Below are positions 7,539 to 59,233 of a stretch of DNA of 64,000 nucleotides, piece after piece (the stretch's first letter is position 1; each line of letters opens with the position of its first letter). Below the pieces are notes generated by a model. It did no database searches and had not been told where the DNA came from. It worked only from the letters and a program-made list of their open reading frames with translations. A program made the translations under genes and the position numbers. Origin of the DNA: Candidatus Woesebacteria bacterium (GTDB taxonomy: Bacteria; Patescibacteriota; Microgenomatia; UBA1400; UBA1396); contig JAJOJK010000017.1 of NCBI GenBank assembly GCA_021208605.1, positions 17,872-81,871 on the forward strand, given 5' to 3'.

Positions 7539-7617
7539 AACAGGAGCCTCGCAACACCCTCAAATATAAGCTAAAATAGCGGGGCTACCAGATCTGGTGA
7601 GAATCCCGTCCTCCTTG

Positions 7618-8970: not shown

Positions 8971-9068
8971 TAAAGCTCCAATTTCTTACCAAAATCTTTT
9001 CTCAGAGACTAAAACTGGAATGGAGTCCAAGACCCAAGCTTATAATTAAGATACACTCAACTAAAGAT

Positions 9069-32718: not shown

Positions 32719-33804
32719 ATGTTTACAGAAAATCCACAATCGACAAATTTAAAAGATCGAGAGTCTGTGAATACGCCACGTGCTTTGGAAGTTTTTTCTC
32801 AACTTCTCTTACGTTATAATACTCTTTCAGATCAACAGCAGCAGGTCATAGATGGAATTATTACTCAACTTGATTTTTTGCAAAGAACCATTCTTGGCAA
32901 ACAAAGTGAGCCTGAAGAGTCCGCGGAGCAAATAGAAATTCGCAGTGAAGAAAAAGAGACTTTATCAGCAGGTATAGATCCGGATGAAGTGTATGCTCAA
33001 ATGAGAGATTTTGAAGTTATCGCAACTCAAGAGCAGAGAAGAAAACTCAGTAGAATGTTCTTTAATTTAGGGTATTGGTCGCATATCAGGTATGGCGCCA
33101 GCAGTTCTCATGATATTATTCAAGATTTAGAAGAAATATCGGATGATAGCCCAGAAATAAATAGACAAAAGCAATTAATATTGCAATACATTCAAGACTA
33201 TATTAATGCTGTCAAAAATGAGGCTGATTTACCTTCGATTGATTATGAAATGCTTGAAAATGGTGGAGTAGAGATTCTTCATGATCTCTCTGAGGAAAGC
33301 AGAGAAAAAGTAATGAAAGTATTAGAAGATATAAACGAGCTTACGGCACATCTTTTTCAGGTAGATAACGTAAATTTTACAGTGAGGGGAAATAATTTAA
33401 TTCAAACACCCGGGGTATATGATCTTTCGTTCAGACCATCTAGTGCCTTTAAAAGTGCATTTCCAAATGATTATGATGATCAAGCTGATGTTATTGAAAG
33501 AAGAAACTTGAATAAATCTCTTACTATTGTTTTGGATGGTTCTACCGCTCATTTGAATGGACATAATATTGGTGTTGACTTTTATGATCGTCCCACCAGT
33601 TTTGGTATTAAAATTATTTTTAAGGACTCCGATTCTGCAAAACGGTTTCTTCAGGTAATCAACGAGGTTAAAGTAGCTGATAGAAATAGCTTTTTAATGA
33701 CTTTGCTTGAAGGAGCTGTTAAACGTTGTAATCAAGATATATATGATTTAGGTATGTATTTTTCCAAACAACTAATTCGCGAAGTGATTGTAGAAGTAAT
33801 TTAG
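32719..33804 (+). CDS. hypothetical protein (AT-rich ORFan next to tRNA-Asp)
   Basis: 361 aa with about 33% GC versus about 48% nearby. No known motif. Confidence 0.45.
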   Translation: MFTENPQSTNLKDRESVNTPRALEVFSQLLLRYNTLSDQQQQVIDGIITQLDFLQRTILGKQSEPEESAEQIEIRSEEKETLSAGIDPDEVYAQMRDFEVIATQEQRRKLSRMFFNLGYWSHIRYGASSSHDIIQDLEEISDDSPEINRQKQLILQYIQDYINAVKNEADLPSIDYEMLENGGVEILHDLSEESREKVMKVLEDINELTAHLFQVDNVNFTVRGNNLIQTPGVYDLSFRPSSAFKSAFPNDYDDQADVIERRNLNKSLTIVLDGSTAHLNGHNIGVDFYDRPTSFGIKIIFKDSDSAKRFLQVINEVKVADRNSFLMTLLEGAVKRCNQDIYDLGMYFSKQLIREVIVEVI

Positions 33805-35377: not shown

Positions 35378-35404
35378 TTATCACTCCCCTTGAATGATTG
35401 CTAA
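35378..35404 (+). promoter_or_regulatory. CIRCE-like inverted repeat (candidate HrcA operator) overlapping the clpB promoter
   Basis: TTATCACTC-N9-GATTGCTAA matches the CIRCE consensus TTAGCACTC-N9-GAGTGCTAA at 16 of 18 positions. It overlaps a -35 TTGAAT, with a 17-nt spacer to AATAAT. Confidence 0.4.
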
Positions 35405-35460
35405 TTTTGCGCAATAATACGTATACGACAATCGTAAAACGAGTAACAAAAGGAGTGACC

Positions 35461-37611
35461 ATGCAGATGTACCCCGCCCCAGAGCAGAAGAAACTCGAAG
35501 ACTTTACTACCGACATTACCGCTTTAGCGAACGAAGGCAAACTTGATCCCGTGATTGGTCGCGAAGCCGAGATTCGCCGGGTGATCCAAGTGCTTTCCCG
35601 CCGCACCAAAAACAATCCGGTTTTGGTGGGGGAGCCTGGTGTCGGGAAAACGGCCGTGGTAGAAGGCCTGGCGCAGCGGATCGCCAACGATGACATTCCC
35701 AACTCGCTGAAAGGAAAACGAATTCTCTCGTTGGAGATGGCTTCGGTTTTGGCTGGGGCAAAGTTCCGCGGCGAGTTCGAAGAGCGTTTCAAGATGATTG
35801 TGGAAGAAGTTACTAAGTCTGAAGGCGAAATCATTTTGTTTGTGGATGAACTGCACACTATTGTTGGCGCGGGGAAAGCTGATGGATCAGTTGATGCGGG
35901 CAATATGCTCAAGCCGGCTCTGGCACGTGGGCAGTTACGCTTGATTGGATCGACCACCCTCAATGAATATCGCCAATACATTGAGAAAGACTCGGCTTTG
36001 GAGCGTCGTTTCCAGCCGGTGTTTGTCGAAGCGCCGAGCGTGGAAAATACTATTTCCATTTTGCGTGGTTTGAAGGAAAAGTACGAACTCCACCACGGTA
36101 TTCGTATTACGGATGATGCGTTAGTGTCTGCGGCTGAACTCTCTGACCGCTACATTCCGGCGCGCCATTTGCCAGACAAAGCGATCGATTTGATCGACGA
36201 AGCCGCCTCAGCTTTAAAAATCGAGACGGAGTCTGATCCCACGGCTATCGACCAACTCAAACGCAAAAAGACGCAGCTCGAAATTGAAGAGCGCGCCCTC
36301 AAAAAAGAAAAATCGGCCGAGTCCAAAGAGCGCTTAGAAGAAGTGCAAAAAGAACTTTCGAGTATCAATGACGAATTGAGTGAACTGCAATCTCACTGGC
36401 AAGAACAGAAAGAGATACTGAATACGGTACAAAGTGTGCGCACGAAAGTGGAAGAGCTCAAAGCGCAACTCGAACGAGCCGAGAGAGACGTGGAGCTCGA
36501 AAAAGCGGCGCAAATTAAGTACGGCCAACTTCCCGAAAAACAAGCTGAGCTCGATGAAGCGCTGAAAAAATGGAGCGCTATTCCGGAGTCAGACCGCCTG
36601 CTCAAAGAAGAAGTTACGCAAGAAGATATTGCCGGTGTGGTGGGGCGCTGGACTGGTATTCCGGTCACGCAGCTGGTGAAAAGCGAAACCGAAAAACTGA
36701 AACACCTTGAGGAAGAACTTGGCAAACGAGTCGTGGGGCAAGATGAGGCGCTGCGGGCGGTGGCCAATGCCGTGCGTCGTTCACGCGTGGGAATCAGTGA
36801 TCGGCACAAACCTCTAGCGACCTTCTTATTCTTGGGTCCGACTGGAGTGGGAAAAACCGAGACCGCCAAAGCCTTAGCAGAGCAACTCTTTGGTGACGAG
36901 CGCGCCATCGTTCGCCTGGACATGAGTGAGTACAGCGAGCCGCACACCGTGGCACGTTTGATTGGAGCTCCTCCTGGATACGTGGGGTATGAGGCTGGTG
37001 GTCAGTTGACTGAAGCGATTCGTCGTCGACCATACTCGGTGGTATTGCTCGATGAAATGGAAAAAGCGGATGCGCAGATTTTCAATACGTTCCTGCAGGT
37101 GTTTGATGATGGTCGCCTGACCGATGGCCAGGGGCGCACGGTCGATTTTACGAACACGGTGATCATTATGACTTCCAATGTGGGTTCAGACCTCATGCTC
37201 GATATGGCGGCCAAAGACAAGTCAACAGAAGTCATCGAGACGGCCGTGTGGGATCGTCTGCGCGGTGCTTTTAAGCCAGAATTCTTGAATCGTATCGATC
37301 ACATTTTGTTGTACGAGCCATTGCAGCCAGAGCAGTTATTGTCGATTGTCGATATGCAGCTCGGCGAGCTCGAAAAACAGCTCGCCTCAGCGCATGTGAA
37401 ACTGCATGTGACTGACGCTGCGTCTCAATGGTTGGCTGATAACGGTTACGATCCCGCCTTTGGTGCCCGTCCGCTGAAGCGTCGCATTCAGTCTGACATT
37501 TTGGATGAAGTTGCTCTGTTGATGCTGGATCGGGAAGATGAGAATGAACAATTGACTGTCCTGGTTGATGCCCAGAACAACGAACTGACAGTGGAAAAGT
37601 CGGATTCATAG
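35461..37611 (+). CDS. clpB: ATP-dependent chaperone ClpB (short form lacking the N-terminal domain)
   Basis: Two AAA+ modules ([16 protein letters not shown]) and a long coiled-coil M-domain between them. SD AAGGAGTG. Starts directly in NBD1. Confidence 0.85.
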
Positions 37612-37645
37612 GTTTTTTGCTTATGGTGCGGTATAATGGCCGACT

Positions 37646-38206
37646 ATGGGAAAAGATAAAGAAACTTTGTATACACCACAAGATATAAAGCGACTTGTAG
37701 CTGCCTACCGTACAGGCAATAAGTTGAAAATTATCGGAGGTTTTTTACAGGAAGTTGGTTTCCCTTACAAAGGTATTTTACTGAGAGAAGAGTGGCAGAA
37801 ACTTACTGGTCAGCCATTACTAGAGCCGCTGAGGGATTTTGCAGATGAACTGAGTACTCTTCCTGATGAATGCGGGGCACTTGATTTGTTGGAAGTAGCG
37901 GTCTCTCTTCAAGTCATGGTGGAGTTTGCCATACACGAAAAAGAGAAGCTGCAAGCGGTAGAACAGACAAAAAGCATTAGCTCTTTCGAGATAATAAATC
38001 TTTTACAGAGATCTGAGAAAGATTTACGGCAATTAGCAGAAAAATTGAAAAAAATATCGAATGATACGTTAGGTTGGTGGAAAACTGAGTGGGTTGATCA
38101 ACAAAGACCGTCCGCACAAGATCTCTCAGATACACGTCGTGTGTTGAACATATATTTTTCTGAACTCCTCAAAATAGTTGAGAATTATCCTGATCAGAAT
38201 CGCTAG
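37646..38206 (+). CDS. hypothetical protein (AT-rich ORFan)
   Basis: 186 aa with about 36% GC. No motif. Confidence 0.4.
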   Translation: MGKDKETLYTPQDIKRLVAAYRTGNKLKIIGGFLQEVGFPYKGILLREEWQKLTGQPLLEPLRDFADELSTLPDECGALDLLEVAVSLQVMVEFAIHEKEKLQAVEQTKSISSFEIINLLQRSEKDLRQLAEKLKKISNDTLGWWKTEWVDQQRPSAQDLSDTRRVLNIYFSELLKIVENYPDQNR

Positions 38207-38266
38207 AATTATTTTCTTTTCAGACTCGGGCTCGCCACGCGTCTAAAAAATGCGTAGAATGGTGCT

Positions 38267-39438: not shown

Positions 39439-39798
39439 TTGCGGTACACTAACCCCATGAAAAAACAGAGTTCCGCTTCCGAACCCTCGGCTGTGCAGGT
39501 GACGCCAGCCACGGTTGCTCACATCGGGCAGCTTGCTAACCTCGAAATTTCCAATCAAGAACAACAACAATTTGCGCAAGCGTTTACCGAAACTCTTGCA
39601 GAAGTGCAGAAAATTTTTGCTGTTGATGTCTCTGAAGTTGAGCCCACACATCATGTGACCGGTTTGGTCAACGTGTGGCGCGAAGACGTGGTCGACGAAA
39701 ATCAGGTGCTTTCCCAAGAGCAAGCGCTCTCAGGCGCCAAGCACACCTTTGGCAAAATGATCGTCGTTGATCGTGTGTTGGAAGGAGATACGGCATGA
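39439..39798 (+). CDS. gatC: Asp/Glu-tRNA amidotransferase subunit C
   Basis: Small acidic protein immediately upstream of and overlapping gatA. Confidence 0.75.
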   Translation: MRYTNPMKKQSSASEPSAVQVTPATVAHIGQLANLEISNQEQQQFAQAFTETLAEVQKIFAVDVSEVEPTHHVTGLVNVWREDVVDENQVLSQEQALSGAKHTFGKMIVVDRVLEGDTA

Positions 39799-41189
39799 GC
39801 GTGGCTTTAAACGAACTCACACTGCGCGAAGCAATTGATGGCATTCGCGCCAAACAGTTTTCTGCAGCAGAAGTACAACAAGCGGTGATCGCGACCGTAA
39901 TCAAAAAAAATCCGGAACTGAACGTCTACCGTGATTTCCACGAGACTGCCACGGATGAAAATTTTGCCGAAGATCTCGCTGGTGTACCGATTGCCGTCAA
40001 AGATAACATCTTAACGCCAGGTTTGAAAACCACGGCCAGTTCCGCGGTGTTGACTGAGTATATGCCGCACTACGAGGCCACGTTGGCCAAGCAGATTCGC
40101 GAAGCCGGCGCCTTTGTGGTAGGGAAAACGAATCTCGATGCCTGGGCACATGGGTCAAGCACCGAAACCTCGGCCTTTGGACCAACCAAAAATCCTTTGA
40201 ATCCTGAGTACATTCCAGGTGGTTCTTCTGGCGGTTCGGCCGCAGCCATTGCGGCTGATATGGCCATTGCGGCGATTGGCACCGAGACTTCTGGTTCTAT
40301 TTTGGGTCCGTCAGCCTGGTGTGGCATGGTAGGCTTGAAGCCAACGTATGGCCGCGTCTCGCGCTATGGTGTGATTGCCATGGCTTCCTCTTTGGACTGT
40401 CCTGGTCCGATGACGAAAACAGTGGAAGATGCCGCGATCATGCTGGAGTACATGGCTGGTCAGGATAAATATGATGGCACCACTTCTCCAACAGAAGTGC
40501 CAGGCTATCGTGACTTCATTGGCAAAGACATCAAAGGTTTACGCATCGGTGTCATGTATCTCGACATTTTGGACAGCGATGAACAACGTGCTGTTTACGA
40601 AACAGCCAAAGAAGAACTCCGCGCTCTGGGAGCAATTGTTGAGGATGTTCAAGCCATGAATCCGGAACCGGCGATTGGAATGTATGCCGTTCTGCAGCGC
40701 AGTGAGGTCAGCTCTAACTTGGCGCGGTTTGATGGCATTCGCTATGGCGAAGGCCGCGATGCCTTTGGCGAAGAAGCTAAGCGCCGCATTATGCTCGGAA
40801 CCTACACCTTAAGTAAAGGGTATGCCGAGAAGTACTACATCCAAGCGCAGCGAGTGCGCAGCTTGTTCATTCAAGACTTTACGCGTTTATTTGCCGAGTA
40901 TGACGTGCTCGTGTCGCCAACGATGCCCGGTTATGCTTTGAAACTCGGTGAAAGCAAGAACTTTGCTTTCTTTGGTGAGATGGTGGACAAAATGGCCGAA
41001 CCACGCGCAGCCGCCGGATTGCCAGCGGTGAACGTGCCGTGTCATCGTGATCCAGCTACGAACCTGAGTCTGGGCCTCGCATTTACGGCGCCGGCCTTCC
41101 AAGAGCAACTCGCCATCCAAGTGGCCGACGCCTACGAACGAGCCACGAACTGGAATCCATGGCGGAAACGTCAGCAGGAGGGAGCCTAA
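39795..41189 (+). CDS. gatA: Asp/Glu-tRNA amidotransferase subunit A (amidase signature)
   Basis: Amidase signature GGSSGGSAAAIAA with a Ser-cisSer-Lys context. Confidence 0.9.
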   Translation: MSVALNELTLREAIDGIRAKQFSAAEVQQAVIATVIKKNPELNVYRDFHETATDENFAEDLAGVPIAVKDNILTPGLKTTASSAVLTEYMPHYEATLAKQIREAGAFVVGKTNLDAWAHGSSTETSAFGPTKNPLNPEYIPGGSSGGSAAAIAADMAIAAIGTETSGSILGPSAWCGMVGLKPTYGRVSRYGVIAMASSLDCPGPMTKTVEDAAIMLEYMAGQDKYDGTTSPTEVPGYRDFIGKDIKGLRIGVMYLDILDSDEQRAVYETAKEELRALGAIVEDVQAMNPEPAIGMYAVLQRSEVSSNLARFDGIRYGEGRDAFGEEAKRRIMLGTYTLSKGYAEKYYIQAQRVRSLFIQDFTRLFAEYDVLVSPTMPGYALKLGESKNFAFFGEMVDKMAEPRAAAGLPAVNVPCHRDPATNLSLGLAFTAPAFQEQLAIQVADAYERATNWNPWRKRQQEGA

Positions 41190-41190
41190 C

Positions 41191-42612
41191 ATGTCTACGA
41201 ATGAATACACGCCAATTATTGGTCTCGAAATCCACGTTGAGATGCGCACCAATTCCAAAATGTTTTGTGGCTGTCCGGCCGAACACTTTGGTGCCGAACC
41301 AAACTCGCACACTTGTCCAGTATGTTTAGGCTTGCCAGGCGCTTTGCCGGTGGCCAACGGAGAGGCGATCAAGCGAACGGTCAAAATTGGTTTAGCTTTG
41401 GGATGTTCGATTGCGGAAGAAAGTAAATTTGACCGCAAGAACTATTTCTATCCGGATTTGCCGAAGGGCTATCAGATTTCGCAGTACGATCAGCCACTGT
41501 GTTATGAGGGTTTGGTCCATACTGATTCTGGTGACGTGCGCATTACGCGCGTTCACTTGGAAGAAGACACCGCCAAACTGCAGCACGTAACGCTCACTCC
41601 GGACCAAATGAAGGCGGCTAATGTGGAACACGCCGATGTTTCCTTGCTGGATTTTAATCGCTCGGGTGTGCCGCTGGTAGAAATTGTGACGGAGCCAGAT
41701 ATTAAAACCGGTGCGCAGGCGCGTGAGTTTGGAAAACTGTTGGTCCAAACCTTGCGCTATCTCGGCGTTTCTGACTGTGACATGGAGAAGGGTTCGTTGC
41801 GATTAGAGGCGAATATTTCGGTGCAGTCCGAAGAGGAAAAAGCTGCTGGCAAGCTGCCGAACTACAAAGTCGAAGTGAAGAACCTGAACTCTTTCCGATT
41901 TTTGGAGCGGGCCATCGATTTCGAGATTGAACGCCACACGGCCATGCGTCGAGCTGGAGAAACGCCAACGCAAGAAACCCGGGGCTGGAACGATGACCGC
42001 AGTGTGACCTTTAGTCAGCGCAGCAAAGAGGAGGCTGAAGATTATCGGTATTTCCCGGACCCAGATTTGCCACCACTGTATTTGTCGCAAGAACTCGTGA
42101 CCGAGATTGGCGAGAGTTTGCCCGAACTGCCGCAGGCTGCTTATATTCGTTTGCAGAGCGGATATGGTTTGAGCGCCCAGAATGCTGAAGTCTTTACTGC
42201 CGAGCGGGAAGTTTTGTTGGCTGGAGAGCAGTTGCTCCAAGCCGCCCAAAAATCGGAACTCGAGCCGCAAACGGTGGCGAATGACGTAGTGAATAAAAAG
42301 GTTGAGACGTGGATTTTGGATGCAGAACGTGTCAGTTCTGCTCCGCCAGAAGAAGTTGCTGCTGAAGTCAAAAAAGTGCTCCAGACGATTGCAAAAGCGC
42401 GGCAAACTGAATCTATTCCTGCAGAAGAGGTTCATGCTATCATGGATGAAATAGCCTCAACTGCCGATGGAAAAGATGCTATCGAAAAGTACCGATCCGG
42501 AAAGGTGCAAGTAATTGGCTTCCTGATGGGTCAGTTAATGCGCAAGCTCCAGAAGAAGGTCGATGCAGGTGAGGTGAAGCAAGTGCTCGAAAACTACCTG
42601 CAAAATGACTAA
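41191..42612 (+). CDS. gatB: Asp/Glu-tRNA amidotransferase subunit B
   Basis: GLEIHVE...CPVCLGLPGALPV and a C-terminal GatB/YqeY domain. Confidence 0.9.
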   Translation: MSTNEYTPIIGLEIHVEMRTNSKMFCGCPAEHFGAEPNSHTCPVCLGLPGALPVANGEAIKRTVKIGLALGCSIAEESKFDRKNYFYPDLPKGYQISQYDQPLCYEGLVHTDSGDVRITRVHLEEDTAKLQHVTLTPDQMKAANVEHADVSLLDFNRSGVPLVEIVTEPDIKTGAQAREFGKLLVQTLRYLGVSDCDMEKGSLRLEANISVQSEEEKAAGKLPNYKVEVKNLNSFRFLERAIDFEIERHTAMRRAGETPTQETRGWNDDRSVTFSQRSKEEAEDYRYFPDPDLPPLYLSQELVTEIGESLPELPQAAYIRLQSGYGLSAQNAEVFTAEREVLLAGEQLLQAAQKSELEPQTVANDVVNKKVETWILDAERVSSAPPEEVAAEVKKVLQTIAKARQTESIPAEEVHAIMDEIASTADGKDAIEKYRSGKVQVIGFLMGQLMRKLQKKVDAGEVKQVLENYLQND

Positions 42613-45217
42613 AGATTTACTTCAATCACCACAAAATGTAGAGGGCGGTGGAATTCCTCCACAGGTTGAACAACTCGGAAGATCTGAATGGAAGCAGCGC
42701 CTTCCTGGCATCCTCAAGGAGCTTGCGGTACCAATGGATGCTGATGATGATATGGCTGGGCATCTTAAGGAAGCTCGCATCAAGGCAGCACAGCTCCATC
42801 TGCAAGAGATGAGGGAGCTTGCTACTGAGATGTACGAAGTGTACCAACGCCTTATGGATGGTGAGTCGACAAATGCCTCTGAAAAATTCGTAGTATCTGC
42901 CGAACAAAAAAAACAGATAGAAGATATTGTTATCTCATTTTATCGGCAAGGGCTGGCTATCCTTCACGAAGATTCTAATTTTCCTGTTAACTCACTACCA
43001 ATGGCGTTTAGGACTAACTTACAATGGAATAATTTCTCCAGGTTTTTGCCTACTGAAAAGGTGCAAAATGATATTTTGCAAAGAATTATCACCAAGATTC
43101 AGGAAACTCTTGCGCAGAGTACAGAGTTATTGGACCAAGAGACTGTGCAAGCAGTAGAAGCAACTCCTGAAATCGGAACTGAAGCGTTCGCCGACGATCC
43201 AGCAGAGCTTGCACCCGAGAATGATTATCCTGAGTTTGATGGAGATACTGAACCTAACCGAGTAGCTGCACCCGAAAAGGAAGCTGTTAATCCGTATCAG
43301 CCAGTGCCACAAGAGGAACGAGCTGAGCACTCATCATTTTTGAAGAATATGCTCTGGAGGTCGGAATCAACGGAACAGGTTCCTGCTGCGAAGGAAACCT
43401 ATTTCTCTAATGAAAAACGATTCCGCATTCTTCCTCTAAAACCAGAAGAACGACAGTACCGAGAGACCGTGCAACGACTTTTACCGGAAGGTGTCGTTTT
43501 GCTCCAAGTGGTCTCTGAAAATGAGTCTGAAGGGGATTTAACACATACGATGACCGTTTTCCCTGGATCACAGTTTTACAATGAAGTTTTGCTCCCTGGA
43601 GGTGTGGATGAGTCTCTAGAAAATGAACCGTTTTTACGAATGGAGAGTGAATCTGAAGTTTGGTACGCAGTAGCTTCTACAGAGCCGGGAGTACGACTTG
43701 AATTTTCGGAAACGCTGGATTCAAATGGAGAAGGTGCCCGGGCTCGCGAAGTGATGAGGCAGCACATTCTTGGAAACTGTATCGAAGAAATTATCCTCCT
43801 ATACGGTATGGCTACTGAACCGAATGTGGATGCGAGTGATCTCTCAGACCAAAAGGAACTATATGCTCAGTTCAGTGCTGGATATAAAGAGTTTTCAGCT
43901 CGAGTGAATTTGGCAGGCTTAGCAGAAAAGATTCAAGAGTTTGAAGCGATGGCTAGTCAGGCCTCAAAAGGAAACGCATCACCAGAAGCTTCGGCTGCGT
44001 ATCGATCGATAGGCGCTGATAATGTAAAAGAAATTGGCAAACACGCTGCTGAACTCAAAAAAGTGCTAACGTATTTTTATCCTGAGGAAGAGCTTCTTGC
44101 TCTTCTTGCGGAACTCCAAAATGAGGGCCAAAATGTTGATTTTGCAAACCTGTATTTTGATCTCGGAGAATTAGAAGCAAAAGCAGATAAGATTGCCCAA
44201 GAAATCCGTAAGAAGAAAAACGGCCTTACTTTTGAGAGCGATGAGGTGAGACAATTTATCACTGTCACAAGAAAGATCTTTACCTACCTTGATGACATGC
44301 TCGATCTAGAAAGAACACAGTATACAGAAGCGGTGTACATTTCTAGGCAGGAGCAGCGACTTAGTTTAGTACAGCAGAAATTAGAACAAATGGGACTTAC
44401 TTTTGATATATCACAAGCGGGTTTGTCTCGAAATTTCTTGTTAGGGATGACGGGCGGAGAATCTCTGGCTCAGCAAGAGGTGAATCCAGTTGAGCTTTTA
44501 GGCGCTGTGGAGCGTGAGTATGGTGTGGCGGTGTCTGAAATACAGCAATTTTTGACAGATCAAGCTGGAGATATTGAGTGGGCAACCTTTTTCCCACCTG
44601 CTTGGCAAATAGACTCTTTGTATGACTGGTATACCGATTTTGTGGCGGTGCGTTCAAATTTCCAGGAAACTATGGATGCGATGACTGCCTATCTTGACAG
44701 AATTGTATGGTTATTATCGGGAACGGAGACGGAGATTGCCTCTCTCGCACAAGCTGCAAAAAACAGTTTAGGTGGTCGGTCAGACGAAATTGGAGCCCAT
44801 TTAGTGTCTCTTGAGCAAAAGATCAATGTTTTGCAAAAACCTGAACCTGAAATTTTGGGAAGCATAAAGCTACTTCAAAGAGAATTTAATTCATATGCAG
44901 AGCGGCGTAAATTGGTCACACGGCTCGTGGAACCAGTGAAGAACATTCTTTTGCGGGAACGAGGTCGTCAAGGAGAGTACACAGATAAGAATAGAGAGGT
45001 AAAAAGGATATTTTACCGTGTGTTAGAGAAAAATTTCAAAAACACCTACGGCAGTTTAGAAAATATAGTTACCAAAACTCGAATCACCGATACTACGAAT
45101 GACAGAGTAACAGTTTCTGAATTATCACGAGCCCTGAACGAAGTATTTGATGATGTTTCTCAAGAAGTGAGTCAAGATATAAATAGCAGCCTTGGGTTAA
45201 CCGCAGAGGCAGCTTAG
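42605..45217 (+). CDS. large acidic hypothetical protein (870 aa ORFan) between gatB and dnaE
   Basis: Overlaps the gatB stop by 8 nt. No TM helix or signal peptide and no recognisable catalytic motif. Predicted mostly helical. Confidence 0.5.
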   Translation: MTKDLLQSPQNVEGGGIPPQVEQLGRSEWKQRLPGILKELAVPMDADDDMAGHLKEARIKAAQLHLQEMRELATEMYEVYQRLMDGESTNASEKFVVSAEQKKQIEDIVISFYRQGLAILHEDSNFPVNSLPMAFRTNLQWNNFSRFLPTEKVQNDILQRIITKIQETLAQSTELLDQETVQAVEATPEIGTEAFADDPAELAPENDYPEFDGDTEPNRVAAPEKEAVNPYQPVPQEERAEHSSFLKNMLWRSESTEQVPAAKETYFSNEKRFRILPLKPEERQYRETVQRLLPEGVVLLQVVSENESEGDLTHTMTVFPGSQFYNEVLLPGGVDESLENEPFLRMESESEVWYAVASTEPGVRLEFSETLDSNGEGARAREVMRQHILGNCIEEIILLYGMATEPNVDASDLSDQKELYAQFSAGYKEFSARVNLAGLAEKIQEFEAMASQASKGNASPEASAAYRSIGADNVKEIGKHAAELKKVLTYFYPEEELLALLAELQNEGQNVDFANLYFDLGELEAKADKIAQEIRKKKNGLTFESDEVRQFITVTRKIFTYLDDMLDLERTQYTEAVYISRQEQRLSLVQQKLEQMGLTFDISQAGLSRNFLLGMTGGESLAQQEVNPVELLGAVEREYGVAVSEIQQFLTDQAGDIEWATFFPPAWQIDSLYDWYTDFVAVRSNFQETMDAMTAYLDRIVWLLSGTETEIASLAQAAKNSLGGRSDEIGAHLVSLEQKINVLQKPEPEILGSIKLLQREFNSYAERRKLVTRLVEPVKNILLRERGRQGEYTDKNREVKRIFYRVLEKNFKNTYGSLENIVTKTRITDTTNDRVTVSELSRALNEVFDDVSQEVSQDINSSLGLTAEAA

Positions 45218-45274
45218 TTCTGAGCGCCTGTATTCCTGAGGTAAAGCCTTTCTGAATTTGCTACACTACAGATC

Positions 45275-48200
45275 ATGTCCTTTGTTCACCTGCACGTTCA
45301 TACTGAGTACTCGCTGCTTGATGGTTTGAGTAAGATTCCCAAGTTAGTGGAACGGGCCAAAGAGTATGGTCAGCCGGCGATTGCCATGACCGACCACGGG
45401 GCCATGTATGGTGCGGTGCCATTTTTCAACAAAGTGAAGAAGGCCGGCCTGAAACCGATTATTGGTTTAGAGACGTACATGTCGGCCACGAGTCGCTTCG
45501 AAAAACAGAAACGGCCTGGAGCCGATGCCTATCACTTAACCTTGCTCGCTAAAACGTTCAAAGGCTATCAGAACTTGATGAAGCTCACTTCCCGGGCGCA
45601 TATTGAGGGGTTTTCCTACAAACCGCGCATAGACGAAGAGCTCTTGCGGGAACACAGTGAAGGCGTCATTGCCACCACCGGGTGTTTGGCCAGTATTTTT
45701 TCGCGCAAACTCATGGACGGTGAGTACGACGAAGTCAAAGAAATGGTCAAACGGTACTATGAGCTGTTTCACGGAGATTTTTTTGTCGAGATTCAACACC
45801 ACCATGGTATTCCTGAAGTCCAACAACACGCGGAAGAAATGGTCAAAATTTCGCGCGAAACCGGCGTACCGTTGGTGGCTACGAATGACGTACACTATGT
45901 CGACAAAGACGACGCCGAGGCGCAAGACGCGCTGGTGTGTGTCTCGACTCGTAAACTCATTAGCGAAAAAGACCGCATGTCGATGCTGCACTCGCCAGAC
46001 TTCTATCTGCGCAGCAGCGAGGAAATGGAGCAGCTCTTTGCCAAGTATCCAGATGCGATTGAGAATACGCTCAAAATTGCCGATATGTGTACCGCTGAAA
46101 TCCCCACCGGACAGTGGATTCTGCCCCAGTACGGCGTGCCCGATGGAATGAGCGCTGAAGAGTACTTGCGCCACATGACGTACGAGCGCGCTCCCAGCGT
46201 GGTCGGGGCCATTACCGACGAGGTAACGCAGCGCTTGGATTACGAGCTCGAAGTTATCAACACCAAGGGTTATGCGAACTACTTTTTGATCGTGCAAGAT
46301 TTTATTTCTTGGGCCAAGGAAAATGGAATTTATGTTGGTCCGGGCCGTGGTTCGGCGGCAGGTTCTTTGGTGTCATTTAGCTTGGGAATTACCACGCTGA
46401 ATCCGCTGGAGCACGATCTGAAGTTCGAGCGGTTCTTGAATCCAGAACGCCCGTCTCCGCCAGATGTTGATGTCGACTTTGCTGATACGCGCCGCGAAGA
46501 AGTGATCGAGTACGTCACCAATAAATACGGCGCTGATCGTGTGGCCAACGTGATTACATTTGGAAAGATGGAAGCTCGGGTGGCAATTCGTGACATTGGC
46601 CGTGTGCTTGGCATGGATTACTCAGATCCAGATAAAATCGCCAAACTCATCCCGCAAGGCATGCGGTTGGGCGAAGCCATTGAAGAAGTACCCGAGCTGA
46701 AACAGTACAGTGAGCTGCCAAAATACTCCAAGTTGTTTGAGTTGGCGCTGAAAGTGGAAGGTTCGATTCGCCACAGCAGTGTACACGCCGCCGCGGTGAT
46801 CGTGACCGATGATGACATTACCAATTACTGTCCGGTGCAACAAGATCCCAACGGAAAAATTGTCACGCAGTACGACATGTATGTTTTGGATGCCAACGTG
46901 TCCGGTGATGATGCCATTGGTTTGCTGAAGTTCGACTTTTTGGGTCTGCGGAACTTGTCCATCTTGGGTGAGGCTGTGGAGTGGGTCAAGAAAACCAAAA
47001 GCATAGATGTTGATCTCGACCGCATTTCTCTCGAAGAAAAAGATGTCTACGACATGATTTCGCGCGGTGAGACAACTGGTATTTTCCAGATGGAGTCGGG
47101 TGGTATGCGGCGTGTGGCCCGTCAACTCAAGCCAAATAAATTTTCTGATATTACTGCTATGGTCGCTTTGTACCGTCCGGGTCCAATGGACCTGATTCCA
47201 GGTTTTGTGGAAGCCAAACATAATCCGGAGAAGATTCAGTATCCTCATCCGGATCTCGAGCCAGTTTTTAAAGATTCTTACGGATACATGATTTACCAGG
47301 AGCAGGCGATTGGTGTGGCCAACGTCATGGCCGGCTATACGCTCGGTGAAGGTGACGTGCTGCGGAAAGCGATCGGTAAAAAGAAAATCGAGATCATGCA
47401 GAAGCAGCATTCTGAGTTTATTCGCCGGTCCATGGAAAAGGGCTACGCCAAAAAAGTGGCCGAAGAAGTCTGGGGCTACATTGAAAAATTTGCGGGCTAT
47501 GGTTTTAACAAAGCCCACGCGGCTTCCTACGCGATGGTGGCGTATCGCACCGCATACATGAAGACGAAGTACCCGGTTGAGTACATGACCGCTCTGGCTT
47601 CGGTGGAGTCTCTGTCGCACAACCAGAAGCGCGAAGAGAAGGTGATGCTGGCGGTCGAAGAAGCCAAGAGCATGGGTATTTTGGTATTTCCGCCGGATAT
47701 CAATAAGTCGGATGTTGGTTTTGTCATCGAAGAAAATGACGAGTCGCTGGAAAATATGGCGATCCGTTACGGACTGGGAGCAATTAAAAATGTCGGTACC
47801 GCTGCGGTAGAATCGCTCCTGGCTGAGCGAAAAGAGAATGGTCCGTTCCAGTCCTTTACTGACTTTTTGCAACGTACGGATTCCCGCAAGGTCAATAAAA
47901 AAGTAGTGGAAAGTTTAGCTCGCGTTGGTGCCTTTGATGCCTTTAGCACCCGTTCCAGCATTTTGGAAAATCTGGATGAAATACGCGCCCAAGCCTCACA
48001 ATTTAAGAGTGATATTGAGGGACAAGATTCCTTGTTTGCGGCTATTGATGACGATAGTGCCACGCAAGTGCAGGACACGTTTCCGCAGTTGGAAGAGTAT
48101 CCGCAAGCGGAACTGTTGGCCTATGAAAAAGAACTGCTTGGTTTTTATTTGACGCAGCACCCAATGGCTAAAGTCTTGACAAAAATTTCGCAGCAAGCGG

Positions 48201-48754
48201 ATCGCAAGATCGCCGATCTCGATGCTGATATTCATGCTGAGCAAGTATTTGTTGTCGGCGGTATTCTTGGTGGCATTCGCGAAGTACGCACCAAAAAGAA
48301 AAATGAAAAGATGGCCTTTGGTACTTTAGAAGACCAAAGTGGTTCGGTTCGAGTCGTGTGTTTCCCTCGTACCTACGTACAAGCCGAGAAGCATTTTCAA
48401 GATGACAACGCTGTTCTCATTCGAGGAAAGCTTGATTCGCGTGATGAAGAAGTGCAAATTATTGCCGAAAAAGTATGGGTGCCCACAATGAGCCCTGATG
48501 AAGAAGACGAGTTGGAAGATGCCGTCGAGATCCTTATTCCTCGTGGTACCTCGAAAGAACTTCTTCAAGAAGTTGGCACTTTACTGAAGAGAAGTCCCGG
48601 GAAAACGCCTCTCGTGTATCTGATCCCTTCACCAGATGGTCAAAAAGTTTCAAAACACCGACCGAACTATACTGTGCACTGGACGGAAGATTTAGCGGCG
48701 TATGTTGCCGAAAAACTCGGTTTGCAAACCAAAGATCTCTCAAAACAGGCGTAA
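45275..48754 (+). CDS. dnaE: DNA polymerase III alpha subunit
   Basis: PHP domain start MSFVHLHVHTEYSLLDG, polymerase core, and an OB domain. 1159 aa. Confidence 0.9.
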   Translation: MSFVHLHVHTEYSLLDGLSKIPKLVERAKEYGQPAIAMTDHGAMYGAVPFFNKVKKAGLKPIIGLETYMSATSRFEKQKRPGADAYHLTLLAKTFKGYQNLMKLTSRAHIEGFSYKPRIDEELLREHSEGVIATTGCLASIFSRKLMDGEYDEVKEMVKRYYELFHGDFFVEIQHHHGIPEVQQHAEEMVKISRETGVPLVATNDVHYVDKDDAEAQDALVCVSTRKLISEKDRMSMLHSPDFYLRSSEEMEQLFAKYPDAIENTLKIADMCTAEIPTGQWILPQYGVPDGMSAEEYLRHMTYERAPSVVGAITDEVTQRLDYELEVINTKGYANYFLIVQDFISWAKENGIYVGPGRGSAAGSLVSFSLGITTLNPLEHDLKFERFLNPERPSPPDVDVDFADTRREEVIEYVTNKYGADRVANVITFGKMEARVAIRDIGRVLGMDYSDPDKIAKLIPQGMRLGEAIEEVPELKQYSELPKYSKLFELALKVEGSIRHSSVHAAAVIVTDDDITNYCPVQQDPNGKIVTQYDMYVLDANVSGDDAIGLLKFDFLGLRNLSILGEAVEWVKKTKSIDVDLDRISLEEKDVYDMISRGETTGIFQMESGGMRRVARQLKPNKFSDITAMVALYRPGPMDLIPGFVEAKHNPEKIQYPHPDLEPVFKDSYGYMIYQEQAIGVANVMAGYTLGEGDVLRKAIGKKKIEIMQKQHSEFIRRSMEKGYAKKVAEEVWGYIEKFAGYGFNKAHAASYAMVAYRTAYMKTKYPVEYMTALASVESLSHNQKREEKVMLAVEEAKSMGILVFPPDINKSDVGFVIEENDESLENMAIRYGLGAIKNVGTAAVESLLAERKENGPFQSFTDFLQRTDSRKVNKKVVESLARVGAFDAFSTRSSILENLDEIRAQASQFKSDIEGQDSLFAAIDDDSATQVQDTFPQLEEYPQAELLAYEKELLGFYLTQHPMAKVLTKISQQADRKIADLDADIHAEQVFVVGGILGGIREVRTKKKNEKMAFGTLEDQSGSVRVVCFPRTYVQAEKHFQDDNAVLIRGKLDSRDEEVQIIAEKVWVPTMSPDEEDELEDAVEILIPRGTSKELLQEVGTLLKRSPGKTPLVYLIPSPDGQKVSKHRPNYTVHWTEDLAAYVAEKLGLQTKDLSKQA

Positions 48755-50113
48755 TTACTGATACATTTCTCGTAAGCCACCCTCAAGCCAGATGATGTCC
48801 ACACGTTTTCCGAGCAGCGAGAGTTTGTGAAGTATCTCTTCTCGCGTCAGGCCTTCGAGAAGTGTGAGTGATGTTTTTTTCCGCAGGGCGTCACGTAAGT
48901 CGGCGTTATATCTCGTTGGCAGGACTCCAACAATGGTTGCTACACGAGAAAGATCTTTAGCCATTTCGAGATGCGCTTGGTGTGTTGTTTCGGCGTCCAG
49001 CTCAACAAAACCGCTCGCGAGAACCATGACGTTTTTTTCTTGAAACTGTTCCAAAATTTCAACCGATTCTTTCCAGGAACCCGGATTAGTGTTGTAACTA
49101 TTGTCGATAACCCAAGTATTATTTGGATTTCGATGTACTTCCAGGCGGCGAGAAATCGGAATATGATACTGCAGACTGCGCGCTGCTTGGGTCCAGGAGT
49201 GGTTCAGTGTGGCGGTCAGCCAGAGACCAGGGAGCGCATTGTGAATTTGGTGTTTAGCCAAGAGTGGCGTGGTTGCGGTCAGGTCACGATTTTGAAAGCG
49301 CACAGTAAAAGAAGAGCCATAGAGATCACTGGTAAAGTCACGCAACTGAATATCGCTTTTTGCTTTGGATCCGTACCAAATAATTTTTCGATAGGTTGGT
49401 GGGGATAGCAACGAGCGATTCTGGTCATCGATCAACACCGTAGTGGGCGCCCATTGACTGGTAAACATTTCGGCAAAGGTAGCGAGCAGATTTTCGCGAG
49501 TTTTGAATCGTTCCATGTGGGCAAAGCCCACTGGTGTGAGAATGCCAAAATCGGGTCGAACAAGCTCGAGCAGCATGTCGATGTCGCCTTTTTGGTACTC
49601 ACCAAGCTCAACAATAAAACACTGGTGGTCATTGCGGAGTTGCGTGGTAATGGTGTGGGCGATTCCCAGTGGGGTGTTGTAACTGGCCGGAGTCATCAGC
49701 GTAAAAAAATGATTGCTGAGGACATGGTGCACGCTGTGTTTTAAAGAGGTTTTCCCATAGCTTCCGGCTACGGCGATAACTTTGAGGCCGTTGCGCTGGG
49801 CGCGACGCAATTTGCGTCGCGCACGCCACATTACCCCCCATTTGCTCATGTTTTCTACTGGGCGCAGCAGTGCGGTGCTCCAGAGTATGGCGGTGGTTTT
49901 GGGGATAGCAATCAGAGTAAAAAATTGACTTATACGATAGATCAGTTGAATTTTTTTGGTCCATTTTTCTGGCTGTAAGCCCTGAATGTGATGCGTGAGA
50001 GCTGTTTCGCGTGGCTCAGCTGCTACCCATTCACGGAAGAGACGAGGTTCGTATTCCTGTTGTTGCCAGATGGCGAGCAAGTTTTTGAGGGAGTAAGGCA
50101 GTCGGGATTTCAT
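48755..50113 (-). CDS. murF: Mur ligase family protein, MurF-like (UDP-MurNAc-peptide ligase)
   Basis: AVAGSYGKTS P-loop and DNSYNTNP (the MurF DxSYNANP motif). Atypical N-terminal 100 aa. Confidence 0.6.
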   Translation of the reverse strand: MKSRLPYSLKNLLAIWQQQEYEPRLFREWVAAEPRETALTHHIQGLQPEKWTKKIQLIYRISQFFTLIAIPKTTAILWSTALLRPVENMSKWGVMWRARRKLRRAQRNGLKVIAVAGSYGKTSLKHSVHHVLSNHFFTLMTPASYNTPLGIAHTITTQLRNDHQCFIVELGEYQKGDIDMLLELVRPDFGILTPVGFAHMERFKTRENLLATFAEMFTSQWAPTTVLIDDQNRSLLSPPTYRKIIWYGSKAKSDIQLRDFTSDLYGSSFTVRFQNRDLTATTPLLAKHQIHNALPGLWLTATLNHSWTQAARSLQYHIPISRRLEVHRNPNNTWVIDNSYNTNPGSWKESVEILEQFQEKNVMVLASGFVELDAETTHQAHLEMAKDLSRVATIVGVLPTRYNADLRDALRKKTSLTLLEGLTREEILHKLSLLGKRVDIIWLEGGLREMYQ

Positions 50114-52196: not shown

Positions 52197-53213
52197 ATGG
52201 TCTCCTTTTTTCGACGTTTGAAACTCTGGCAATGGATTCTGATCATCGGTTTAGTGACGGTGATTGGTGGTGGGATAGCTTGGCGGCAGTTTGGCCAAAA
52301 AGAGGAAGTTGTCGAAACCATCACACCACGCTATCAGCCGTTGCAGCAGACGTTGGAGTTCACCGGTTTGGTAAATGCGCATGATCGGGTGCAACTTCGT
52401 TTTGCTACCGGCGGCGAGGTCATCTACATTGGAGCTCAGGAAGGTGACACGGTGAAACGAGGGCAGACCATAGTGAGTCTGGATCGACGTTCAATGGAGA
52501 AGTCGCTCGAAAAATCGCTCAGTTTATATGAAACCCAGCGCCGCACGTTTGAGGGCACAGAAGATACCCTCGGTGATTATATCGATGACGACGATGAAAA
52601 ACGCGAAGCCGAAAAGAATCAGTTTGCGCTCGAGCGCTCAGTATTAGATGTAGAAATTCAATCTCTCGCTATAGAAAACTCCCGTTTAAGTTCCCCATTG
52701 AACGGTGTTTTAGTGACATCTCCCGTCACTGTAACCGGAGTGAATATTTTTGCGACTGATATCTTTGAAATTGTTGATCCCGATACTCTCTATTTCCAAT
52801 TACTGGTGGATGAAGTCGATGTCGACAAGATGTATGTTGGTCAAAAAGCCTACGTGCGTTTGGATGCTCGCCCCGATGATGTCCTAGAAGCCATCGTGGC
52901 GGATATTTCTTTGAAGGCGGCACAAGGTGCGAGTGGAACGGTTTTTCCTGTCGAACTTGATTTTATTGCGCCAGTTTCGATTCAAGAGCAACGGCTTGGC
53001 ATGAACGGTGAAGCCGCCGTGGTCTTAGCGGAAAAAGATAACGTCTTGACGGTCCCGATTGAAACCGTCACATTCCGTGATGGCGAGAGTTGGGTTGAAG
53101 TTCTTGTGGACAGCGAAGTACAACGACGAGTGGTAGTCACTGGTGTCGAAGGTGATGATTCCGTGGAGATAGTGAGTGGTTTGTCGGAAAACGATCAAGT
53201 AGTTTTGCCATGA
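52197..53213 (+). CDS. efflux periplasmic adaptor (HlyD/MacA family)
   Basis: TM anchor, coiled-coil hairpin and a beta-barrel region. Start refined to MVSFF, 7 nt after TATACT (leaderless). The in-frame ATG at 52173 would include the -10. Confidence 0.7.
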   Translation: MVSFFRRLKLWQWILIIGLVTVIGGGIAWRQFGQKEEVVETITPRYQPLQQTLEFTGLVNAHDRVQLRFATGGEVIYIGAQEGDTVKRGQTIVSLDRRSMEKSLEKSLSLYETQRRTFEGTEDTLGDYIDDDDEKREAEKNQFALERSVLDVEIQSLAIENSRLSSPLNGVLVTSPVTVTGVNIFATDIFEIVDPDTLYFQLLVDEVDVDKMYVGQKAYVRLDARPDDVLEAIVADISLKAAQGASGTVFPVELDFIAPVSIQEQRLGMNGEAAVVLAEKDNVLTVPIETVTFRDGESWVEVLVDSEVQRRVVVTGVEGDDSVEIVSGLSENDQVVLP

Positions 53214-53929: not shown

Positions 53930-55157
53930 ATGCAGTGGGTTAACACCGTAAAAGTCGCTTGGAAGGCCATTTTTACGAACAAATCACGTTCTCTCCTCAC
54001 AATGCTGGGCGTCATTATTGGTGTCGGTTCGGTTATTTTGCTGACTTCTATTGGGACTGGTATCCAAAAGTTTATCGAGCAGCAGTTTGAAGACTTGGGT
54101 GTGAACACCATTGTGGTGTATCCGTTCCAAATTTTCAGCGAGAGTGGTGGATTCCAGAATGGCGATGATCGATTGGGTGAAATAGCTGGCCAACAATTTT
54201 CGGAGCGCGAGGTGCAGGATATTGCTCGTTTGAGTTCGCAAATAGTAGCCGTCATGCCGGAGTCATCGCAGCGCAGCGATGTGGCGTGGCGGAATACCAG
54301 CGAAGTGGGCACTATTGTTGGCACTTCGGAAGAGTACGAAATTGTGCGCAACACGAAAGCAGAAAAGGGTCGTTTTTTTTACCGAGCAAGAAGCAAAATC
54401 GGGCCAACGCGTGGCGGTGCTCGGAAATACCATTGCCGAAGAAGTTTTTGGGGATGTCGATCCGGTGAATAAAGATGTGCGTATTGGCGAGACGACTTTT
54501 ACTGTAGTCGGTGTGGCCGAGAAAAAAGGTGGCGGGTTTGGTGGACCTGGTTTTGACCGCTACGTTATGATTCCGCTCGATGCCTATTTCCGTATGTTTG
54601 ATACTCGCGATGTGAACAGCATGTCGATTAAGGTGCGTTCGAAAGAAGATATTAACGACGTGATCAGTCTGGTGGAGAATTATCTGGAAGAAGAAAGCAA
54701 TCGCGACGCTGATGATTTCGATGTTTTTGATCAGACCGAAATTCTCAATACTATCAATCAGATTTTGGGTGTTTTGACGCTCGGCCTCGGTGGAATCGCG
54801 GCGATTTCTCTTGTGGTGGGCGGTATTGGCATTATGAACATTATGCTGGTCTCGGTAACCGAGCGAACGCGCGAAATTGGCTTGCGAAAAGCCTTGGGAG
54901 CGACCCCGAACCAAATACTGTTTCAGTTTCTTATTGAGTCTTCCCTGTTGTCATTTATTGGCGGGGCGATTGGCGTCGGGTTGGCAGCTTTACTGTCGAT
55001 GGCATTAGTGGTCTTTGCTGATTTTCCCTCGGCGATTACGCTTGATGCGATCGCGCTCGCTTTTGGTGTGTCGTTTGTAGTGGGTATTGTGTTTGGTGTG
55101 GCACCGGCGCGCAAGGCGAGTCGCTTGTCTCCAATTGAAGCGTTGCGCTCAGAGTAA
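53930..55157 (+). pseudogene. MacB/FtsX-type ABC permease interrupted by a +1 frameshift in a T8 homopolymer
   Basis: The 53930..54472 and 54279..55157 ORFs join cleanly if the T8 tract at 54371..54378 is T7 (…AEKGRFFTEQEAKSGQRVAVLGN…). The FtsX-like four-TM C-terminus is intact. Confidence 0.6.
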
Positions 55158-55202: not shown

Positions 55203-55694
55203 ATGACCAAGTTTTTCGCTTTTGCCCTTATTTTGGTTGGACTCGGCGGGGCCGCTTTGTGGTATGTGGCGTATCAGCTGCAATTGCCAGATTTAACGCA
55301 GGCTCAAACGACGGCACCAAGTATGTCTGTTTCAACAGATGCAATCCAGAATGAAGTGAAGCGTATTGATCAGCAGATCGCGGCACAGATTCGGAAAGTG
55401 GGCGAGGAAGGTATTGATTTCAGTATGTTTTCACAAGTGCCCCAAGTGGCGAGTTCATTTCAGCAGGCTTCTCAGGCGACGCTGTCTGCCACTGTGAGCA
55501 CTACTCCAGAAGAACTCTGGCAGACGCTACGTGAAGAAGGTGCACAAGCTGTAATGGGTTCGCTCGCGAAAAATGCCGAAGTGTCGGTCAACGACCTTTC
55601 TACCGATATTATGAACGAAGCACGTTACCAATACTGTGTCGGTGTGGTCGAGCAGTATGAACACAATCGATCGGCAGAGGACGCTGCCCAATAA
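55203..55694 (+). CDS. hypothetical membrane-anchored protein
   Basis: Start MTKFF. One N-terminal TM helix and a Gln/Ala-rich region. Confidence 0.4.
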
Positions 55695-55720
55695 GCGCGG
55701 CGCCTGATATACTAACGCAC

Positions 55721-59223: not shown

Positions 59224-59233
59224 TCGCTACACT

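Follow-up and report, generated by a model that had tools for sequence, protein, structure and literature searches.

The question addressed here is what an orphan open reading frame (ORF) of 870 amino acids (aa) does between the genes for the GatCAB amidotransferase and the gene for DNA polymerase III alpha in a genome of Candidatus Woesebacteria. The window under analysis, i.e., the whole 64,000-nucleotide (nt) stretch of contig JAJOJK010000017.1 (assembly GCA_021208605.1, positions 17,872 to 81,871), encodes GatC, GatA, GatB and DnaE, all identified by their Pfam domains as the initial annotation of this DNA, made from the sequence alone, had proposed. The ORF, hereafter ORFX, starts with ATG and lies between gatB and dnaE on the plus strand (42605..45217). 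The explanation that appears to be the best one, and that is favored here as probable although by no means secure, is that ORFX is a population-restricted orphan accessory gene of Candidatus Woesebacteria which follows gatB as an addition to the gatCAB operon, in a slot of variable content, and encodes a scaffold-like product; this assessment includes the origin of the gene and its coupling to gatB as proposed below.

ORFX is a genuine protein-coding gene and is coding along its whole length. At the local base composition, the probability of an 870-codon open frame arising by chance is approximately 6e-23. With 20 Pfam-annotated genes of the window as the training set, a frame-specific codon model was applied to segments of 60 codons; it prefers the annotated frame in all 28 of the 28 segments (mean score +13.1 nats vs. 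+24.8 nats for gatB) and is negative for the remaining two forward and the three reverse frames. The G+C content (GC) at the first, second and third codon positions (GC1, GC2 and GC3; 0.58, 0.36 and 0.37, respectively) follows a coding-type pattern, and the opposite strand across ORFX contains only ORFs of 86-93 aa. Several further copies of the gene are available. The Logan contig L081 (SRR12390697) is 100% identical to the window over positions 42033-45861 and, because this match extends across both junctions, the ORFX region is not an assembly chimera. The 870-aa protein has been deposited three times in GenBank (MCD8507586.1, which is hypothetical protein LRY65_04470, MCD8527428.1 and MCD8546172.1), each time as a hypothetical protein of Candidatus Woesebacteria bacterium. 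The two contigs that were fetched, of three recorded, from metagenome-assembled genomes (MAGs; GCA_021208925.1 and GCA_021209405.1) are up to 409 kb long and encode the identical 870 aa with no substitutions compared to the window; in these MAGs, the gene context consists of LemA, an M48 peptidase, a Clp ATPase, an unannotated ORF of 186 aa (orf186), DeoC, GatCAB, ORFX, DnaE and a Mur ligase.

In two other assemblies, ORFX is split, namely in GCA_021208155.1 (124, 341 and 394 aa) and in a Logan contig of SRR12390694 (124 and 738 aa). A frame disruption in close relatives, which the initial annotation had named as a possible sign of a spurious call, is thus formally present but fails as a refutation: the differences between these two sequences and the window are, without exception, 1-nt homopolymer indels in the same clone, with zero substitutions. 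Like indels split dnaE and the mur gene in both assemblies and, in GCA_021208155.1, also gatA and the Clp ATPase gene. Because the homopolymer indels also break the neighbors and are not accompanied by substitutions, the breaks in ORFX appear to be sequencing errors in the same clone and to provide no evidence against the gene. It is, then, very improbable that ORFX is not a functional gene, being either an artifact of gene calling or a long frame that happens to be open in DNA that is decaying or was recently acquired. Such an interpretation could draw on the singleton status of the gene with no evidence of selection, the broken frame in two assemblies and a codon-model score about half of that of gatB, but it is at odds with the minuscule chance probability, with the coding signal that spans the full length while the other frames are negative, with the nature of the breaks, and with the intact frame in three MAGs and one independent contig.

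The genomic position of ORFX can be assessed by comparison with 160 related loci that were fetched with GatB as the probe. The nearest GatB matches are MAGs of the Microgenomates type within the Candidate Phyla Radiation (CPR), including Levy-, Curtiss- and Roizmanbacteria, which, together with the GenBank name, bears out the earlier guess of a CPR-like organism. The lineage is poorly sampled, given that GatB identity to the best species representative reaches only 52%. The nearest GatB relatives (L001, L002, L003, L005-L007, L010, L013, L014 and others) include MAGs titled 'uncultured Pseudomonadales/Gammaproteobacteria bacterium'; these taxon labels look wrong because both the gatCAB-dnaE synteny and the protein identities group the respective MAGs with Microgenomates (CPR).

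The order gatC-gatA-gatB-dnaE is conserved in the Microgenomates-like relatives, and the insertion into a conserved gatCAB-dnaE backbone that had been suspected from the single sequence agrees with the synteny, the backbone being kept and ORFX being absent in the relatives. In the closest relative, L085 (JGI contig Ga0123335_1008675; GatB 61% and DnaE 71% identical), the same gatC-A-B-dnaE-mur order, including the opposite-strand Mur ligase, is found, and an 88-bp gap with no ORF separates the end of gatB (5208) from the start of dnaE (5297). The next loci by DnaE identity (L001, L087 and L002) have gaps of 29-36 bp, so that the four nearest slots are empty. As estimated by tblastn, the distance between gatB and dnaE is 20-120 bp in L001, L002, L003, L009, L012, L087 and L085, and 20-46 bp in all of these but L085. 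Farther relatives contain a variety of genes in this place: in 12 loci, GGDEF-type proteins that are homologous to each other (184-312 aa), seven of them confirmed against Pfam family PF00990 (1e-27 to 1e-46); a protein with S4 and pseudouridine synthase domains in L004; and small ORFs without annotation in a few other loci. As judged from this comparison, accessory genes appear to have entered the gatB-dnaE slot repeatedly, and ORFX appears to be a lineage-specific insertion into this variable slot. The parsimonious reading is that it entered an empty slot after the split from the L085 lineage. Because the nearest relatives lack ORFX, it would be an accessory gene and would not belong to the core of either the amidotransferase or the replisome.

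The GGDEF proteins of the slot, which are of the diguanylate cyclase type, share position and strand with ORFX but consist of 205-310 aa and contain both the PF00990 domain and the GG[DE]EF motif, whereas the 870-aa ORFX contains neither. The possibility that ORFX is a degenerate version of these proteins was considered and rejected given that, apart from the missing motif, a profile of 11 slot GGDEF proteins yielded an hhalign probability of 0.1% and nothing in hmmsearch with the --max option. In its own right, the recurrent gatCAB-GGDEF-dnaE arrangement in many Microgenomates-like relatives, with proteins of ~205-310 aa and intact GGDEF or GGEEF motifs, is also worth recording; genomes of this type are usually thought to be poor in signaling genes.

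Sequence searches indicate that ORFX is a strict singleton, with no detectable homolog anywhere searched, and the absence of clear homology to a well-known family that had been anticipated applies to all sequence libraries searched. No Pfam family matches the protein; at E<=10, the whole protein and four pieces of it yield only noise of the coiled-coil type (DASH_Dad4, Zw10_N, CEP152), far under the gathering cut-offs. The best match in NCBIfam is MCE at 0.11, and nothing usable was found in PHROGs and PADLOC (the best PHROG, DdrA-like with an E-value of 0.87, is noise). Among PDB sequences, the whole protein has no match at E<=10 and three pieces of it return nothing but noise. In a word-indexed search of 5.8 billion clusters, ORFX matches only itself even at E<=10. 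Scans of genome, metagenome and viral (IMG/VR) contigs detected no related locus, tblastn of ORFX against the 160 gatB-related loci returned nothing, and there is no paralog within the window. A search of Rfam at E<=1 over the ORFX region gave a single chance match to a microRNA and no RNA family.

An exhaustive HMMER (phmmer) scan of 1.84 billion cluster representatives retrieved two fragments of ORFX itself and one foreign protein, denoted P0004, an LPXTG surface protein with 11 near-identical SpaA-domain repeats. Residues 302-333 of ORFX align to one of these repeats without gaps, with 13 of the 32 residues identical and with a shared PG-x5-E-x3-PGG spacing; this part of ORFX also contains its only predicted beta strands. 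These are the points of resemblance to the SpaA/prealbumin-like fold domain of Gram-positive LPXTG surface proteins (PF17802). Nevertheless, membership in the SpaA/Cna-B group was rejected: the E-value of 8e-5 for P0004 is inflated by the 11 near-identical repeats; residues 256-382 of ORFX match no Pfam family at E<=0.1, whereas the P0004 repeat scores 3e-12 against SpaA; no such chain appeared in the PDB search; and ORFX has neither a signal peptide nor an LPXTG motif nor a hydrophobic segment.

Long orphan genes are a familiar feature of CPR genomes. Compared with the orphan genes of CPR/Patescibacteria in general, as commonly known and not as listed in any particular catalogue, ORFX is similar in its range of a single population, in a GC3 under that of the core genes and in its location in a variable slot at the edge of a conserved operon; it differs in its length, 870 aa being much for such a gene, and in the start/stop overlap with the upstream gene.

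The predicted product is a protein of 98.5 kDa with a pI of 4.62, in which Asp plus Glu make up 17% of the residues (Glu 12%) and His 0.9%, and which has a single Cys. No hydrophobic segment is apparent (the maximum Kyte-Doolittle mean over 19 residues is 0.91), not even at the N-terminus, and neither a transmembrane segment nor a signal peptide is present. Motif scans detected no Walker A, HExxH, GG[DE]EF, CxxC, GxSxG, DEAD or LPXTG motif. Composition, motif scans and database searches thus concur with the initial description of a large, acidic, soluble orphan protein lacking any recognizable motif. As for the coiled coils and repeats for which this description had proposed an analysis, there are no internal repeats and the heptad periodicity is weak. 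A P-loop or SMC-like coiled-coil ATPase was also considered and rejected because, in addition to the weak heptads, there is neither a Walker A motif nor a Pfam match to SMC or AAA. The AlphaFold2 models, computed without an alignment, are of unusable confidence (pLDDT, the predicted local distance difference test score, is 37.6 for the entire protein and 44.2 for the segment of residues 375-870), and only the secondary structure trend was taken from them. This trend amounts to ~62% helix in the low-confidence model and divides the protein into four putative regions (Table 1). A Foldseek comparison of the model of residues 375-870 with the PDB gave no match at E<=0.001 and, beyond this threshold, only generic helical bundles, which, with a model of such low confidence, is uninformative.

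It is conceivable, albeit unlikely, that ORFX belongs to a known fold or family, such as the helical-repeat or helical-bundle proteins, but has diverged so extremely that its membership escapes sequence methods and would emerge only from a comparison of structures. Only the sequence tests were proper tests of this possibility, the AlphaFold2 models being unusable and Foldseek saying nothing either way, and the sparse sampling of the lineage, with the nearest species representative only about half identical in GatB, would favor it. Against it, there is no sub-threshold signal of any family even at the most permissive cut-off, and the slot is empty in the nearest relatives, i.e., no diverged ortholog is in place. 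Under the preferred interpretation of ORFX as an orphan accessory gene, the product most likely would be a protein-binding scaffold or adaptor rather than an enzyme, given that motifs for catalysis or for the binding of nucleotides or metals are absent.

One sequence link to the upstream gene was detected. A 23-nt stretch of ORFX encoding AAELKKVL (Table 1) is identical in 22 of the 23 positions, and in frame, to a stretch of gatB. No second match of this kind exists between ORFX and either strand of the remaining 61 kb of the window, and codon-shuffled ORFX controls yield 0.01 such matches per shuffle. Furthermore, in a one-to-one BLASTP comparison, residues 481-552 of ORFX and 390-466 of GatB are 28% identical over 80 residues (E 0.021). 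These two similarities could suggest that the 3' region of gatB, which encodes the YqeY-like tail, gave rise to a part of ORFX by duplication or has undergone gene conversion with it. This origin is highly doubtful, however, because the identity spans only 8 codons and a profile of 52 GatB C-terminal regions plus that of the window does not recognize ORFX (0.5 bits in hmmsearch with --max, hhalign probability 0.1%), nor does Pfam GatB_Yqey, and derivation from the GatB_Yqey tail was rejected on these grounds. In short, ORFX shares with the GatB C-terminal YqeY-like domain (PF02637) the nucleotide patch and a weak alignment but no profile-level similarity, and the patch may reflect a small gene conversion, an origin seeded by duplication, or chance.

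The DNA of the junction between gatB and ORFX reads caaaATGACTAAagat, with the ATG of ORFX at 42605-42607 and the gatB stop codon TAA at 42610-42612, in agreement with the 8-nt overlap of start and stop noted initially. Inspection of the sequence upstream of this start, M1, revealed no Shine-Dalgarno motif. The genes of the window with a ribosome-binding site of their own have GGAGG-type motifs 4-8 nt upstream, and another start/stop overlap with no Shine-Dalgarno motif is found in the window at the mfp-to-abc junction (53210-53213). Because M1 overlaps the gatB stop in the absence of a Shine-Dalgarno motif, as is the case at the mfp-to-abc junction, reinitiation after gatB is a plausible mode of translation. 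Promoter and terminator scans from gatC to dnaE returned site counts equal to the shuffled expectation, and given that no promoter or terminator signal exceeds chance, co-transcription of ORFX with gatCAB is plausible as well.

Upstream of dnaE, a -10-like hexamer, TACACT, ends 7 nt 5' of the ATG; it was read from the sequence and was not called by the consensus promoter scan. At the equivalent position, L085 has TAAACT, and in orf186, deoC and the release-factor gene, similar boxes (TATAAT, TAGAAT, TATACT) lie 7-9 nt upstream of the ATG. Thus, dnaE is probably transcribed on its own and, because of this box, ORFX is most reasonably regarded as the terminal member of the gatCAB operon, not as a partner of dnaE. 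The position directly upstream of dnaE that was noted in the initial annotation is real (the spacer measures 57 nt) but need not mean a functional link. A wider pattern is also discernible here: -10-like hexamers without a Shine-Dalgarno motif are present at 37616-37645 (orf186), 38237-38266 (deoC), 45245-45274 (dnaE) and 55691-55720 (release-factor gene), which suggests that the respective mRNAs are leaderless or near-leaderless, while other genes have a clear GGAGG.

These signals also bear on the possibility that ORFX is a lineage-specific partner of its neighbors, such as a transamidosome-associated factor or an accessory replisome subunit replacing a component missing in CPR. The shared strand and operon with gatCAB, the start/stop overlap and the location directly before dnaE are compatible with such a role. 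It is nonetheless improbable: the nearest relatives keep gatCAB-dnaE without ORFX, unrelated genes (GGDEF, pseudouridine synthase) fill the slot elsewhere, making position no guide to function, and dnaE seems to have a promoter-like box of its own. A more far-reaching variant, in which ORFX represents a new family with a new fold that was recruited as a partner of the co-expressed machinery and could tether GatCAB/tRNA or DnaE via its helical domains, a basic patch at residues 751-800 and the acidic linker, is a long shot.

As an orphan accessory gene confined to a single clonal population, ORFX would have been inserted at the 3' end of gatCAB, just 5' of the separately promoted dnaE. It would be transcribed by read-through from the gatCAB promoter and translated by reinitiation at the ATGACTAA overlap, so that its expression would be tied to that of gatB. 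The predicted product would be a cytoplasmic, acidic protein of 98 kDa, in which an N-terminal helical region is followed by an acidic proline-rich linker, a short beta region and a helical C-terminal region of ~500 residues.

Composition provides some indication of where the gene came from. The GC3 of ORFX is 0.369 compared with 0.546 in gatA, 0.534 in gatB and 0.548 in dnaE; the correlation of its relative synonymous codon usage (RSCU) with that of the window genes is 0.76, compared with 0.88-0.93 for the neighbors, despite the length of ORFX; and its dinucleotide relative-abundance distance is in the 98th percentile of 2.6-kb segments. A low GC3 is also found in orf186 and in the ORF at 32719-33804, both of which have no annotation, and in the native-looking gene of an M20 peptidase. 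The most likely origin of ORFX appears to be acquisition from an unsampled source of lower GC, or else very fast divergence after acquisition.

Several considerations count against this interpretation, in whole or in part. A foreign origin is only suggested because neither the bulk GC of ORFX (0.436 vs. 0.465 for the window; 22nd percentile of 2.6-kb segments) nor its tetranucleotide distance (79th percentile) is an outlier; the low GC3 could instead reflect weak codon selection in a fast-evolving gene with low expression. Accordingly, the statement of the initial annotation that codon usage and GC look native holds for the unremarkable bulk GC but finds little support in GC3, RSCU and dinucleotide bias, which look less native. 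No hallmarks of mobile elements flank ORFX, i.e., there is no pair of direct or inverted repeats and no adjoining integrase or transposase. All copies of ORFX are identical, with no substitutions from which a ratio of nonsynonymous to synonymous rates (dN/dS) could be derived, and ORFX could be a recent, possibly transient acquisition. The start codon is ambiguous: to judge from the sequence, translation could begin at M1 or at M44, which is preceded by AAGGAG (Table 1) and was chosen by one gene caller on the Logan contig, giving an 827-aa product; the spacing of 12 nt between AAGGAG and M44 exceeds the 4-8 nt seen at other genes of the window. The expression of ORFX and its coupling to gatB are deduced from sequence signals. 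The scaffold or adaptor role, which can be proposed with modest confidence, is derived from the absence of motifs and from low-confidence secondary structure, and an enzyme with an unrecognized fold could also be consistent with the data. Apart from these considerations, literature searches with the assembly, run and locus-tag identifiers and the accessions returned no paper, and the GenBank record has no functional annotation.

The same compositional features are relevant to another scenario, in which ORFX is the cargo of an unsampled phage or mobile element, for instance an acidic anti-defense factor of the DNA-mimic type or an exclusion factor, that landed behind gatB. A GC3 17 points under that of the flanking genes, the atypical dinucleotide bias, the presence in one population only and the strongly acidic protein fit such cargo, which we regard as unlikely given the failure to find a PHROG or PADLOC family or an IMG/VR contig match and the lack of the flanking repeats and recombinase genes; a start neatly fused to the gatB stop additionally suggests some time of residence.

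The features of ORFX and its surroundings, along with the GGDEF proteins that occupy the equivalent slot in other loci, are listed in Table 1. Upstream of gatCAB, the window encodes a Clp-type AAA+ ATPase, orf186 and a DeoC-type aldolase.

Table 1. Coordinates of features in ORFX, in the adjoining genes and in the gatB-dnaE slot of related loci (window coordinates unless a locus is named).
Feature	Position	Strand	Basis or remark
gatC-gatA-gatB operon, ORFX appended at its 3' end	39439..42612	+	Pfam
GatC	39439-39798	+	Pfam
GatA	39795-41189	+	Pfam (Amidase, 8.8e-112)
GatB	41191-42612	+	Pfam (GatB_N 6.6e-109, GatB_Yqey)
Overlap of ORFX start and gatB stop, ATGACTAA, 8 nt	42605..42612	+	Candidate site of termination-reinitiation coupling
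Alternative start M44 with AAGGAG	42716..42736	+	AAGGAG 42716-42721, ATG 42734-42736; 12-nt spacing
N-terminal predicted helical region, residues 1-184	42605..43156	+	Low-confidence model; no PDB sequence relative
Acidic proline-rich segment, residues ~185-265, likely disordered linker	43157..43399	+	Low-confidence model and composition; no predicted structure
Region with the only predicted beta strands (~272-320), residues ~266-374	43400..43726	+	Low-confidence model; contains 32-residue SpaA-like motif, aa 302-333
C-terminal predicted all-helical region, residues 375-870	43727..45214	+	Low-confidence model; basic patch 751-800, net +6
A8 homopolymer	42906..42913	+	A9 in GCA_021208155.1 and SRR12390694, where ORFX is apparently cut to 124 aa
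A6 run, second indel site	~44057	+	Same comparison
23-nt stretch, in frame (AAELKKVL)	44045..44067	+	22/23 identical to gatB 42358-42380 (AAEVKKVL, in frame)
57-nt spacer between ORFX and dnaE	45218..45274	+	-10-like TACACT at 45262-45267
dnaE, DNA polymerase III alpha, downstream border of the slot	45275-48754	+	Pfam (PHP, DNA_pol3_alpha 1.8e-92, finger, HHH_6, OB)
Mur ligase	48755-50113	opposite strand	Pfam
Slot GGDEF protein, L007	11341-12063	gatB/dnaE strand	
Slot GGDEF protein, L008	11325-12155	gatB/dnaE strand	
Slot GGDEF protein, L014	11305-12081	gatB/dnaE strand	
Slot GGDEF protein, L086	1540-2325	gatB/dnaE strand	
Slot GGDEF protein, L092	11379-12143	gatB/dnaE strand	
Slot GGDEF protein, L098	3218-4156	gatB/dnaE strand	
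Slot GGDEF proteins, L099, L100, L102, L104, L106	between gatB and dnaE	same strand	

Elsewhere in the window, several features are of separate interest. The region at ~3000-9500, in which GC falls to its minimum for the window (0.37-0.40) and the tetranucleotide distance reaches its maximum, may be an acquired island; it encodes small accessory enzymes, namely a DUF4352 protein, a histidine phosphatase, an S-adenosylmethionine (SAM) methyltransferase, a protein with a tRNA-editing domain, GNAT acetyltransferases and GDPD, and adjoins a MerR-type regulator and a fusion of ParB-N with a DNA methylase (993-2297). ORFs without a Pfam family are located at 37646-38206 (186 aa, GC3 0.34), 32719-33804 (361 aa, GC3 0.24) and 56915-57577 (220 aa). 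The Clp-type AAA+ ATPase at 35398-37611 is listed for the window with a TTG start and 737 aa, but the gene calls on the MAG copies give only 323-324 aa; its copy in GCA_021208155.1 differs from the window by homopolymer indels at 36511-36536. At 53930-55157, a MacB_PCD/FtsX permease is split into ORFs of 180 and 292 aa by a T8 run at ~54373, whereas the GenBank MAG copies have T7 at this run and a single permease gene of 408 aa; therefore, the assembly of the window carries at least one homopolymer indel, or else the frameshift is genuine. The locus at 57602-60478 encodes FtsE (ABC ATPase), FtsX with the FtsX_ECD domain and then a 414-aa protein that combines a coiled coil at the N-terminus with a Peptidase_C39_2-like domain; the gene in this place in other bacteria would be expected to encode a coiled-coil hydrolase activator of the EnvC/PcsB type.

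Altogether, ORFX, whose product GenBank already lists as a hypothetical protein, is an ordinary orphan gene that opens no long-standing question. If it were instead a recruited partner of the co-expressed machinery, core translation or replication in a reduced CPR genome would have gained a lineage-specific component. If the preferred interpretation as an accessory orphan is right, the locus presents a clean, well-delimited orphan insertion, in which a 2.6-kb gene has been joined, through overlapping start and stop codons, to the last gene of an essential operon. The ORFX protein would then be a candidate for structure determination that may have a new fold, and the gene would serve as a worked example of lineage-specific gene gain in the reduced genomes of CPR bacteria.

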